From assembly GCF_056746865.1 (NCBI RefSeq), contig NZ_CM163382.1: DNA of 64,000 nucleotides. One strand, given 5' to 3'. The first letter of the stretch is position 1. Each line of letters begins with the position of its first letter. The notes under the pieces are model-generated. The model saw only the letters and a program-made list of their open reading frames with translations. It was not told where the DNA came from and did not search any database. The translations under genes were made by a program, and so were the position numbers. This document shows positions 15,012-50,255 of the stretch, in pieces.

Positions 15012-16745
15012 GTGAATATTCAGGCTCTTCTCTCAGAAAAAGTCCGTCAGGCCATGATTGCGGCAGGCGCGCCTGCGGATTGCGAACCGCAGGTTCGTCA
15101 GTCAGCAAAAGTTCAGTTCGGCGACTATCAGGCTAACGGCATGATGGCAGTTGCTAAAAAACTGGGTATGGCACCGCGACAATTAGCAGAGCAGGTGCTG
15201 ACTCATCTGGATCTTAACGGTATCGCCAGCAAAGTTGAGATCGCCGGTCCAGGCTTTATCAACATTTTCCTTGATCCGGCATTCCTGGCTGAACATGTTC
15301 AGCAGGCGCTGGCGTCCGATCGTCTCGGTGTTGCTACGCCAGAAAAACAGACCATTGTGGTTGACTACTCTGCGCCAAACGTGGCGAAAGAGATGCACGT
15401 CGGTCACCTGCGCTCTACCATTATTGGTGACGCAGCAGTGCGTACTCTGGAGTTCCTCGGTCACAAAGTGATTCGCGCAAACCACGTCGGCGACTGGGGC
15501 ACTCAGTTCGGTATGCTGATTGCATGGCTGGAAAAGCAGCAGCAGGAAAACGCCGGTGAAATGGAGCTGGCTGACCTTGAAGGTTTCTACCGCGATGCGA
15601 AAAAGCATTACGACGAAGATGAAGAGTTTGCCGAGCGTGCACGTAACTACGTGGTAAAACTGCAAAGCGGTGACGAATATTTCCGCGAGATGTGGCGCAA
15701 ACTGGTCGACATCACCATGACGCAGAACCAGATCACTTACGATCGTCTCAACGTGACGCTGACCCGTGATGACGTGATGGGCGAAAGCCTCTACAACCCA
15801 ATGCTGCCAGGAATTGTGGCGGATCTCAAAGCCAAAGGTCTGGCAGTAGAAAGCGAAGGGGCGACCGTTGTATTCCTTGATGAGTTTAAAAACAAGGAAG
15901 GCGAACCGATGGGCGTGATCATTCAGAAGAAAGATGGCGGCTATCTCTACACCACCACTGATATCGCCTGTGCGAAATATCGTTATGAAACACTGCATGC
16001 CGATCGCGTGCTGTATTACATCGACTCCCGTCAGCATCAACACCTGATGCAGGCATGGGCGATCGTCCGTAAAGCAGGCTATGTACCGGAATCCGTACCG
16101 CTGGAACACCACATGTTCGGCATGATGCTGGGTAAAGACGGCAAACCGTTCAAAACCCGCGCGGGTGGTACAGTGAAACTGGCCGATCTGCTGGATGAAG
16201 CCCTGGAACGTGCACGCCGTCTGGTGGCAGAAAAGAACCCGGATATGCCAGCCGACGAGCTGGAAAAACTGGCTAACGCGGTTGGTATTGGTGCGGTGAA
16301 ATATGCGGATCTCTCCAAAAACCGCACCACGGACTACATCTTCGACTGGGACAACATGCTGGCGTTTGAGGGTAATACCGCGCCATACATGCAGTATGCA
16401 TACACGCGTGTATTGTCCGTGTTCCGTAAAGCAGAAATTGACGAAGAGCAACTGGCTGCAGCTCCGGTAATCATCCGTGAAGATCGTGAAGCGCAACTGG
16501 CAGCTCGCCTGCTGCAGTTTGAAGAAACCCTCACCGTGGTTGCCCGTGAAGGTACGCCGCATGTGATGTGTGCTTACCTGTACGATCTGGCCGGTCTGTT
16601 CTCTGGCTTCTACGAGCACTGCCCGATCCTCAGCGCAGAAAACGAAGAAGTGCGTAACAGCCGTCTGAAACTGGCACAACTGACGGCGAAGACGCTGAAG
16701 CTGGGTCTGGATACGCTGGGTATTGAGACTGTAGAGCGTATGTAA
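15012..16745 (+). CDS. argS: Arginine--tRNA ligase (577 aa), GTG start
   Basis: ORF 15012..16745; HVGH (HIGH-type) class I motif; GTG at 15012. Confidence 0.97.
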
Positions 16746-16764
16746 TCGATTTTTCGTGAGAGTG

Positions 16765-16800
16765 AAGCCTGATCAGGGTTACCTGATCAGGCTTTTTTAT
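16765..16800 (+). terminator. Rho-independent terminator of argS
   Basis: aagcctgatcag-ggttac-ctgatcaggctt followed by TTTTTT. Confidence 0.8.
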
Positions 16801-16921
16801 TGCCATCTAAATGTATTCTGAAAATGGACATGCCATCGTTTTCTCACTGTTGGGTAAGAAGTCAGAAGCGTAATATTCGGCCCCAGGGAAACGATAACGG
16901 TTGAATTTAAGGAATACCGCA

Positions 16922-17410
16922 GTGTTTAAATTTCTTGTATTAACATTAGGCATTATCTCTTGCCAGGTTTACGCAGAAGATACGCTTATAGTAAACGACC
17001 ATGACATTTCAGCCATCAAAGATTGTTGGCAAAAAAATTCAGATGATGATACTGACGTTAACGTGATCAAATCATGCCTGCGACAAGAATACAATCTCGT
17101 CGATGCGCAATTAAATAAAGCCTATGGTGAAGCTTATCGTTATATAGAACAAGTGCCACGCACAGGTGTAAAAAAACCTGATACCGAACAACTTAACTTG
17201 CTTAAAAAATCACAGCGAGCCTGGCTGGATTTTAGGGACAAAGAATGTGAATTAATCCTTTCAAATGAGGACGTTCAGGATTTAAGTGACCCTTATTCTG
17301 AATCAGAATGGCTCTCATGTATGATCATACAGACCAATACGCGAACTCGCCAGTTGCAGCTATACCGTAACTCTGAAGATTTTTATCCAAGCCCTTTGAC
17401 AAGAGGATAA
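16922..17410 (+). CDS. yecT: YecT, DUF1311-type secreted protein (162 aa from GTG 16922; 169 aa if TTG 16901 is used)
   Basis: ORF 16901..17410; N-terminal signal peptide (FKFLVLTLGIISCQVYA); AAGGA 8 nt upstream of GTG 16922; AT-rich. Confidence 0.8.
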   Translation: MFKFLVLTLGIISCQVYAEDTLIVNDHDISAIKDCWQKNSDDDTDVNVIKSCLRQEYNLVDAQLNKAYGEAYRYIEQVPRTGVKKPDTEQLNLLKKSQRAWLDFRDKECELILSNEDVQDLSDPYSESEWLSCMIIQTNTRTRQLQLYRNSEDFYPSPLTRG

Positions 17411-17529
17411 TTCACATATTTTTGGCATGTTTTGTTGCAAGCTATTCCTGATAAATAATTGCAACAAAACATCGAGCCTTTTTCACTGAGTTATTAAACA
17501 TACTCGCGAGCGCGTAATTTTTTTGTCCT

Positions 17530-17922
17530 TCAGCGATAATTCACAATCACTTCATTACGTTGTACTTTCAGCGGCGGAATTAACCGCCCACCGCCAGGCA
17601 CTTCCCAGATAAAGCGCAACGGTTCTGCTGCCGCTATACCGGAAAAGGCCACGGTGGTTCCGCTCTGCCCCTCTAATTCGACACAACGAGATTGCGAACA
17701 CAAGCGAACCCGCAGTCCTGAAGGTGTCGGGCCGATAAGCTGATAACGCCACGCTACCAGCGTCATCAATCCTGAAGCAGGTTGTCGCGTAGAAAGAGGC
17801 GCAGACGACATCGACTCACCGCGATGATTTAGCGTAATTCCTACACTACTTGCCTGCCACATCCCCTCCCCGGCGGCTTGCACCAGCAGCGGAAACAATA
17901 ATATTGCTAATAAGGTTCTCAT
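17530..17922 (-). CDS. flhE: Flagellar protein FlhE (130 aa)
   Basis: ORF 17530..17922; signal peptide; last gene of flhBAE; start overlaps the flhA stop by 1 nt. Confidence 0.95.
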   Translation of the reverse strand: MRTLLAILLFPLLVQAAGEGMWQASSVGITLNHRGESMSSAPLSTRQPASGLMTLVAWRYQLIGPTPSGLRVRLCSQSRCVELEGQSGTTVAFSGIAAAEPLRFIWEVPGGGRLIPPLKVQRNEVIVNYR

Positions 17923-42718: not shown

Positions 42719-42889
42719 ATGTTTTAATCAGCGAGGGGGATCTTCGCTGATTAAATAAATAGCGGTAATGCGTTTTATTCCCATTCGTATTTTTAATAAA
42801 TGAAGTTTATATTTTACCTTTTGCAAATAATAAAATAACAAATTATAGTGACGCCACAGCAACAAATATAACCTTTGTGGAGCACTATC

Positions 42890-50217: not shown

Positions 50218-50255
50218 AAAACCGGCTGATAGCGTGCCTTTCAGCCGGTTTTTGC
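50218..50255 (+). terminator. Rho-independent terminator between convergent yecF and sdiA
   Basis: aaaccggctga-N12-tcagccggttt followed by TT. Confidence 0.7.

Follow-up and report, generated by a model that had tools for sequence, protein, structure and literature searches.

The perfect 14-bp inverted repeat directly downstream of yecT is a real yet essentially ordinary feature. On balance we consider it probable that yecT is an exchanged, immunity-type gene of the LprI family that carries its own plus-strand hairpin, a terminator and stabiliser left unused by the converging flhBAE operon. The region from 16740 to 17560 of the window (the whole 64-kb stretch of DNA that was analysed) matches Escherichia coli strain C with 100% identity and some 3,500 further complete genomes with 95-99%, and the host of the window is, by its sequence, E. 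coli. Window coordinates equal those of MG1655 (NC_000913.3) minus 1,945,050, an offset that was verified, and the locus is laid out as follows.

15012-16745, plus strand: argS (open reading frame list and RefSeq annotation)
16764-16800, plus strand: intrinsic terminator of argS, with a 14-bp GC-rich stem (hairpin 16764-16795), a 4-nt loop and a T-run (terminator scan)
16787-16831, minus strand: yecV, gene of a 14-aa small protein (MSIFRIHLDGNKKA) (RefSeq annotation, identical DNA in strain C and MG1655)
16832-16921, plus strand: promoter and 5' region of yecT, with an AAGGA ribosome-binding site at 16910-16914 (sequence; PMC3950696)
16922-17410, plus strand: yecT coding sequence, 162 aa, GTG start (RefSeq annotation, LprI-family protein)
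17424-17478, plus strand: hairpin, with an outer GGC/GCC helix, the perfect 14-bp arms, a loop that pairs internally and a CGA bulge (folding and repeat search)
17479-17483, plus strand only: U5 tract abutting the hairpin base (read from the sequence)
17505-17524, plus strand: tiny second stem CGC-GAGC-GCG (17505-17514), then T7 (17518-17524) (read from the sequence)
17334-17529, minus strand: 3'UTR of flhE (flhBAE), which spans the hairpin and enters yecT antisense by 77 nt (PMC10687069)
17530-17922, minus strand: flhE coding sequence, final gene of flhBAE, with flhA and flhB beyond (open reading frame list and RefSeq)
16749-17534, no strand assigned: exchangeable argS-flhE spacer cassette, comprising the argS terminator, yecV, the yecT promoter, yecT, the hairpin and the spacer (genome comparison)

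The initial annotation had described yecT as AT-rich and as sitting alone between argS and flhBAE. The GC content of the gene, 0.38-0.41 vs 0.51-0.58 in the flanks, bears out the first statement; the position stands as well, but the gene is not entirely alone, as yecV shares the spacer on the opposite strand. The start of yecT had been placed at a TTG at 16901 and is moved here to the GTG at 16922, because AAGGA lies 7 nt upstream of it and both RefSeq and the N-termini of homologues agree with it.

The inverted repeat and its hairpin

The arms ATGTTTTGTTGCAA (17427-17440) and TTGCAACAAAACAT (17459-17472) are 100% complementary and stand 18 nt apart, so that the perfect 14-bp inverted repeat at 17427-17472 is confirmed as first described. 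It is the longest perfect inverted repeat in the window for loops of 3-30 nt, and 14-mer inverted repeats appeared in 0 of 40 first-order Markov simulations; the repeat is not a chance product. Over a 3-nt CGA bulge the arms are prolonged by GGC (17424-17426) and GCC (17476-17478), after which comes TTTTT (17479-17483). The complete hairpin (17424-17478) begins 13 nt past the yecT stop, and its stem is AU-rich overall. The spacing of 18 nt had been taken for a loop; the spacing is right, but pairing inside it leaves an apical loop of only 5-7 nt. Compared with shuffled controls the region folds with z = -5.7 on the plus strand and z = -5.1 on the minus strand, the free energy of the hairpin being -19.7 to -20.9 kcal/mol on the plus strand and that of the more stable minus-strand fold -24 kcal/mol.

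The search for the palindrome elsewhere in the genome, which the initial annotation had proposed, finds it to be single-copy. No further copies of the arms were present in the 64-kb window with up to two mismatches allowed, and a search of 5426 E. coli genomes found the hairpin at this locus only, at one place per genome in 3613 genomes. A repeat of the REP/BIME or ERIC type is ruled out by this single locus per genome. An Rfam 15 scan of 16600-17700 at a permissive E-value returned matches at chance level, the best of them scoring 14-17 bits at E values near or above 1. Within the left arm, TGGCATG-N5-TTGCA is one base too long for the sigma-54 -24/-12 consensus, and the loop sequence ATTCCT resembles an RcsAB box, with the spacing off by one. 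A sigma-54 promoter in the left arm was rejected for its wrong spacing, and a genome-wide sigma-54 ChIP study reports only a site inside argS.

Strand direction and the converging flhE transcript

On the plus strand UUUUU (17479-17483) directly follows GCC, whereas the minus-strand tail past the hairpin is the A-run AAAAAUAUGUG with no U-tract, and it is this asymmetry that assigns the hairpin to the plus strand. The T-score is 3.84 for the hairpin on the plus strand and 0.14 on the minus strand, with 3.25 for the argS terminator. A terminator discriminant of the d'Aubenton-Carafa type, computed with modern energy parameters and to be trusted for its relative ranking only, gave -12.5 for the plus-strand hairpin against a threshold of zero, about -75 for the minus strand and +17.6 for the argS terminator as control. 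A simple terminator scan missed the hairpin because its loop and bulge exceed the limits of that scan.

In common with the argS terminator and intrinsic terminators in general, the structure is a stem-loop 13 nt past a stop codon with a G/C base, an abutting U-run, an asymmetry between the strands and a stem more conserved than its flanks. The plus-strand hairpin is thus terminator-like yet atypical: its AU-rich stem counts 17 pairs and a further 4 inner ones, roughly double what is usual, its stability is about -0.36 kcal/mol per nt compared with -0.78 for argS, a bulge sits beside the base and only five U follow. We regard it as most likely the one-way, long, AU-rich intrinsic terminator and 3' stabiliser of yecT itself, with termination, we infer, at the U-tract. 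The initial annotation had set against its own proposals an ordinary plus-strand terminator with a unique and unconserved palindrome, and that outcome is the better fit; the palindrome is indeed unique, but its stem is conserved. In the mechanism that we propose, the 14-bp repeat, the GGC/GCC helix and U5 would act together in the plus-strand RNA as a Rho-independent terminator and stabiliser of the yecT 3' end, and the hairpin would stop yecT transcription from entering flhE and flhA antisense. The second small stem at 17505-17514 is also oriented on the plus strand and is weak (-1.7 kcal/mol); followed by T7, it may possibly provide a back-up terminator. Besides the long, AU-rich stem with its bulge and the subthreshold score, further observations stand against a terminator: in E. 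whittamii the stem is retained with little of the U-tract left, a tract that E. coli and Escherichia sp. E1V33 keep, and there is no homologous hairpin at the E. fergusonii allele or at most T6SS-linked homologues.

The 3' ends of the neighbouring genes have been mapped in K-12, where argS ends at MG1655 1961848 (window 16798) (PMC10687069). The flhE terminus lies at MG1655 1962384 on the minus strand, which is 17334 in the window, and was classed as 'distant primary' with a 197-nt 3'UTR; upstream of it the structure is weak (-8.1 kcal/mol) and U residues are few, and read density is 0.41-0.53 in the 3'UTR vs 0.31 in the coding sequence (PMC10687069). A Rho termination region has been placed at MG1655 1962401 on the minus strand (window 17351), antisense to yecT (PMC7815308). 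No termini are listed at 19624xx-19625xx on either strand in the first of these studies (PMC10687069), and no curated Term-seq ends fall in that MG1655 interval in the second (Adams et al., PMC7815308). Since coverage extends across the hairpin, the flhBAE transcript reads through it and the hairpin is not shared with flhE: the transcript ends within yecT, about 90 nt past the hairpin, where termination depends on Rho. In the mechanism proposed above, flhBAE would therefore owe its end within yecT to Rho and not to the hairpin.

The initial annotation had suggested a bidirectional terminator common to yecT and flhE. Such an intrinsic terminator would suit the convergent genes and the lone strong hairpin in their spacer, which can fold on either strand, and the bidirectional terminators described by SEnd-seq likewise consist of a single hairpin between convergent units. 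Here, in contrast, the U-tract is confined to one strand, the minus-strand T-score and discriminant are those given above (0.14 and about -75), and flhE ends 90 nt later, with Rho-dependent read-through detected on the minus strand. For K-12 grown exponentially in LB or in minimal medium the flhE end at 17334 and the coverage that crosses the hairpin contradict such a terminator, and we consider it highly improbable, the least credible of the readings weighed here. The mapping of 3' ends on both strands that the initial annotation had called for is in part supplied by the published K-12 maps, which give a minus-strand end past the hairpin.

The hairpin could instead be mainly an RNA element of the minus strand, which, within the 197-nt flhE 3'UTR, would shield flhBAE mRNA from 3'-to-5' exonucleases after Rho termination or take part in cross-talk with the yecT transcript. 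It does lie inside the flhE transcript, its minus-strand fold is stable (-24 kcal/mol, z = -5.1), and the read density of the 3'UTR is slightly above that of the coding sequence. The flhE 3' end, however, remains about 90 nt past the hairpin with no trimming back to it, the sequence variants in K-12 and in the loop helix weaken pairing on the minus strand and spare it on the plus strand, and E. coli that lack the cassette, like E. fergusonii, express flhBAE without the hairpin. We judge a minus-strand role to be unlikely.

Turning to the plus strand, the argS-yecT intergenic fragment contains a promoter that is activated by BglJ-RcsB and partly repressed by H-NS/StpA (PMC3950696), and a Rho termination region has been placed on this strand at MG1655 1961940, or 16890 in the window (PMC7815308). 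Neither study of termini (PMC7815308, PMC10687069) records a plus-strand end at MG1655 19624xx-19625xx, but yecT was barely expressed in them. Because yecT is repressed by H-NS/StpA and requires BglJ-RcsB for strong expression, the absent plus-strand 3' end should be read as missing data, not as evidence against an end there. The TERMITe tables hold no entries for yecT or flhE. We would picture yecT as a horizontally exchanged, AT-rich gene that is mostly silenced by H-NS and activated by BglJ-RcsB.

Conservation of the stem and exchange of the spacer

Seven Escherichia lineages were aligned (strain C, MG1655, O157, two more E. coli, E. whittamii and Escherichia sp. E1V33). Across these seven lineages only 1 of 34 stem positions varies, vs 37 of 85 in what remains of the spacer between yecT and flhE (Fisher p = 6e-6) and 5 of 21 in the local loop with its bulge (p = 0.03 vs the stem). 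The sole change in the main stem is 17468 A>G in K-12. With the inner loop helix included, four changes affect one side of a pair only, and three of them are A>G, namely the one in the main stem and two in the inner helix; these keep U.G pairs in the plus-strand RNA, would create C.A mismatches in the minus-strand RNA and break the symmetry of the DNA. The fourth, in the inner loop helix of E. whittamii, is a plain mismatch. No double-sided change, and so no covariation, was seen in the main stem among the hairpin-bearing lineages, whose divergence is too low for such a test; the second small stem of E1V33 reads CGT...ACG and has one compensatory change.

These substitutions bear on whether the repeat acts as DNA. 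A palindrome bound by a protein had been suggested initially. The protein could be a recombinase, a nucleoid protein or a regulator that acts on yecT or flhBAE, and such a site would suit the perfect 14-bp symmetry in the strain studied, the strong conservation of the arms and a cassette locus prone to recombination. Against it, the sequence is single-copy in the genome and belongs to no Rfam family, lies downstream of both genes and not at a promoter, and has arms 32 bp apart from centre to centre, a poor fit to a simple dimer site. The asymmetric substitution of K-12 breaks the DNA symmetry and is tolerated only by wobble pairing in RNA, as it keeps a U.G pair in the plus-strand transcript, and the boundaries of the cassette fall at the argS and flhE stops and not at the repeat. 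A protein-binding palindrome is in our view very unlikely.

The flanks of argS and flhE were matched in all but one of 5,426 genomes, whereas yecT and the hairpin occur in only about 65%. The yecT region was found in 3552 genomes and the hairpin in 3559, and the two always travel together. The cassette is missing from about one third of E. coli genomes, for example that of the ST131 strain JJ2434 (L004); in such genomes argS and flhE are 52 bp apart with a single, different hairpin between them. Homology is lost 3 nt past the argS stop and picks up again at the stop codon of flhE, and a few genomes carry IS1-mediated deletions. E. fergusonii has an LprI-family gene in the same position whose product is 57-58% identical to YecT, in comparison with 98% for ArgS and 88% for FlhE between the two species. 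Its left flank (the argS terminator plus about 45 nt) is homologous to the E. coli cassette, but its 3' flank lacks a stable fold (z = 0.3), having a right half that is similar in part (GCTTATCCTGCAAC) and no left arm. The absence of the hairpin from this allele means that the 14-bp repeat belongs to the cassette allele of E. coli, E. whittamii and E1V33. Genome comparison indicates that yecT has been horizontally exchanged and that the whole argS-flhE spacer is replaceable.

The right half seen in E. fergusonii, with no left arm and no stable fold, would also suit a repeat without function, left over for instance from an inverted duplication that arose locally in foreign, AT-rich DNA; transcription of yecT would then end through Rho or where it collides with that of flhBAE. 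The terminator score, which is below threshold on a scale trusted for relative ranking only, points the same way. The stem is nevertheless clearly more conserved than the adjacent spacer across lineages 4-6% apart, and the closing GGC/GCC helix and the U5 tract are placed exactly as a terminator requires. A relic is the least unlikely of the alternatives, though still not one that we expect to be correct. Each of the rival readings is individually less likely than the combined account of an exchanged yecT with its own plus-strand terminator and stabiliser, for which the main doubt lies in the subthreshold score and in a yecT 3' end that is predicted.

YecT and its T6SS-linked relatives

The DUF1311-like motifs noticed in the initial annotation are borne out by the match of YecT to Pfam PF07007 (LprI/DUF1311), which scores 64.8 bits vs a cut-off of 22 (E = 1e-17) and covers profile positions 1-106 of 106. 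The W-x3-R-x3-C motif is W101/R105/C109, in nearly invariant columns of the family, and C35, C52, C109, C133, W101 and R105 all stand in invariant or nearly invariant columns. The signal peptide MFKFLVLTLGIISCQVYA, also noticed initially, is borne out too; its cleavage site VYA|ED aligns with AYA|T and AYA|A of homologues, and YecT is most likely a periplasmic protein with four conserved Cys and a site of the signal peptidase I type. The structure prediction that had been suggested for YecT yields the DUF1311 fold: an alignment-based AlphaFold model (pLDDT 89), which replaced a single-sequence run with pLDDT 51, is a helical bundle that matches PDB 3GI7 (TM 0.79, rmsd 2.5, probability 1.00), and the sequence profile matches both 3GI7 and 6AR7. 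In the proposed mechanism YecT would be a periplasmic, helical LprI/DUF1311 protein with four Cys.

UmoC, a flagellar regulator of Proteus mirabilis, is of the DUF1311 type, and yecT likewise adjoins flagellar genes, but YecT scores 36.1 bits vs a curated cut-off of 120 for the UmoC family (NCBIfam NF041434), and membership was rejected. Nine of ten YecT relatives score 23-38 bits with the same profile and the tenth gives no match; the weak UmoC match is generic cross-matching of DUF1311 proteins. LprI of Mycobacterium tuberculosis, a lysozyme inhibitor and founder of PF07007, has the DUF1311 domain and is also extracytoplasmic; it differs in being a lipoprotein with extra domains, whereas YecT has the VYA|ED site. 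The documented or predicted T6SS immunity proteins of the LprI/DUF1311 family, which include EHEC Etsi4 (Z0245), the orphans of the Pantoea agglomerans hcp island and the neighbours of WHIX proteins, resemble YecT in family, fold, periplasmic signal and small size. Etsi4, a DUF1311 protein, rescues the toxicity of Etse4 (PMC12981562), LprI/DUF1311 genes flank WHIX effectors (PMC12135965), and the orphan LprI genes of the Pantoea hcp island have been assigned to T6SS immunity (PMC9796082).

The YecT subfamily is small, its nearest members outside Escherichia being 61-64% identical, and YecT is as near to T6SS-linked homologues as it is to the gene that fills its slot in E. fergusonii. For two of these nearest members, P0012 and P0020, the 90%-identity clusters have named members from Mangrovibacter, Gibbsiella, Cedecea, Pantoea, Yersinia and one Salmonella, and a one-protein scan of genome contigs found only close Escherichia relatives. 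Four of the fetched YecT-like loci are linked to T6SS clusters or a PAAR gene, with the following gene orders.

L010: VgrG, a 764-aa protein (WHxxxH motif and Pesticin-lysozyme domain), a 124-aa LprI, the YecT-like gene, PAAR, a 386-aa protein, TssM
L009: CHAP-domain effector, four small open reading frames, a remnant of a PAAR start, the YecT-like gene, PAAR, TssM
L015 and L016: the YecT-like gene, then PAAR

The Pesticin-lysozyme domain of the 764-aa protein in L010 scores 28.2 bits vs a cut-off of 25.8. The 3' flank of the YecT-like gene in L010 also bears a weak, partial likeness to the hairpin (ATGTTGCAAG...CTTGCGAT and a U-rich tail); no other homology to the hairpin was found in the 3' flanks of YecT-like genes elsewhere, which have unrelated small hairpins or none. 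In E. coli, yecT has argS and flhE as neighbours and no adjacent effector, adjoining effectors being seen only with the 61-62% identical homologues, and tblastn and blastn-short searches of its flanks for T6SS remnants (PAAR, effector and others) found none beyond a paralogous LprI match to yecT itself. Unlike the T6SS immunity genes, E. coli yecT stands outside any T6SS cluster, flanked by the gene of a tRNA synthetase and by a flagellar operon. It would at best be an orphan, like the Pantoea LprI genes, and its 61-62% identical homologues hold the positions of immunity genes beside peptidoglycan-hydrolase effectors. Because of its family, the context of its homologues and its behaviour in the population, YecT is read as probably an orphan immunity-type protein, and its role in the proposed mechanism would be that of an orphan inhibitor that counters toxins of a lysozyme- or pesticin-like kind, which cleave peptidoglycan and arrive through the T6SS of other bacteria.

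In a further, tentative extension that we hold to be possible but doubtful, YecT would be a functional immunity protein of the orphan kind, induced via RcsB (with BglJ), which guards E. coli, including K-12 with no T6SS of its own, against T6SS effectors of the pesticin or lysozyme type from Enterobacterales in its vicinity. On this view the slot between argS and flhE would serve as a small site of immunity-gene exchange, occupied by the E. coli allele, by the E. fergusonii allele or empty, and selection would have favoured the long hairpin for shielding the flagellar export operon from an inducible gene that converges on it.

The hairpin itself would add one further, somewhat atypical intrinsic terminator and change little else, alongside a documented case of a converging operon, flhBAE, that ignores the hairpin and relies on Rho. 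For yecT, an uncharacterised K-12 gene with T6SS-type relatives that is present, absent or replaced at a fixed slot, the findings lead to the hypothesis of orphan immunity to muramidase effectors. If this is true, envelope-stress signalling through RcsB-BglJ would be tied to a specific protection against T6SS attack.

Inverted repeats around yecT

The intergenic region upstream of yecT holds one further annotated gene:

16787-16831, minus strand: yecV, an annotated 14-aa small protein gene

Encoded opposite to argS, yecV starts 36 nt past the stem of the argS terminator, and at its 3' end it overlaps both the T-run of this terminator and the right arm of the stem. Besides the argS terminator and the 14-bp yecT hairpin (arms 17427-17440 and 17459-17472), the only perfect inverted repeats of at least 12 bp with short loops in the 64-kb window are at 42723-42755 and 50218-50252, and both lack a good U-tract on the plus as well as the minus strand. 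Within yecT itself, a 14-bp perfect palindrome, TGTATGATCATACA, which includes a GATC site, occupies 17318-17331, directly beyond the mapped flhE 3' end (17334). The left arm of the yecT hairpin together with its upstream base (17423-17440, TGGCATGTTTTGTTGCA) resembles a sigma-54 -24/-12 element; this candidate was rejected, as the spacer is one base too long and the published sigma-54 map has no ChIP site there.

Rho-dependent termination on both strands

Rho termination regions flank or lie inside yecT on both strands, at MG1655 1961940 (window 16890) on the plus strand and 1962401 (window 17351) on the minus strand (Adams et al. 2021, PMC7815308). For the minus-strand region in the presence of bicyclomycin, downstream reads outnumber upstream reads (119 against 33; Adams et al. 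2021, PMC7815308), which hints at antisense initiation inside the AT-rich yecT that is suppressed by Rho, beyond read-through alone.

PAAR and flagellar neighbours of YecT-like genes

In the comparison loci L009, L010, L015 and L016 an intact PAAR gene stands immediately 3' of the YecT-like gene, and truncated PAAR gene starts (ATGCAAGG..., encoding MQGTVCIGDK or MQGIIN) are found immediately 5' of such genes in L009 (3810-3850) and L011 (4001-4093), the remnant in L011 being in frame with the LprI ORF call and fused to it. This arrangement suggests that PAAR 5' ends serve as recombination points for cassette shuffling.

In L011 (5736-8371) and L014, both low-GC contigs (31-35%), YecT-like genes that are 62-64% identical adjoin the flagellar hook genes flgE/flgD instead of a T6SS cluster. 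This is a second association of such genes with a flagellar locus.

Variability of the argS-flhE slot

The yecV-yecT-hairpin segment (16749-17534) is wholly missing from about one-third of complete E. coli genomes, for example the ST131 strain JJ2434. The yecT-less spacer is 52 bp long (L004, 750-805) and carries one hairpin, different from that of yecT: AGCCGATGTC-attgca-GACATCGGCT followed by T6. In E. fergusonii the slot (L018, 3749-4580) is occupied by an LprI-family gene with only 57-58% identity to YecT, despite 98% identity for ArgS and 88% for FlhE between the two species, and a stable hairpin is absent from the 3' flank of this gene. The slot has the appearance of a site that is hypervariable or open to exchange. 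Strain HCP6S3_I1 (L003, 2577-3480) has IS1 directly past the argS terminator and a deletion from yecT through part of flhD; recurrent yecT-flhD deletions have been described in a Keio derivative (preprint 10.1101/2025.03.19.644130).
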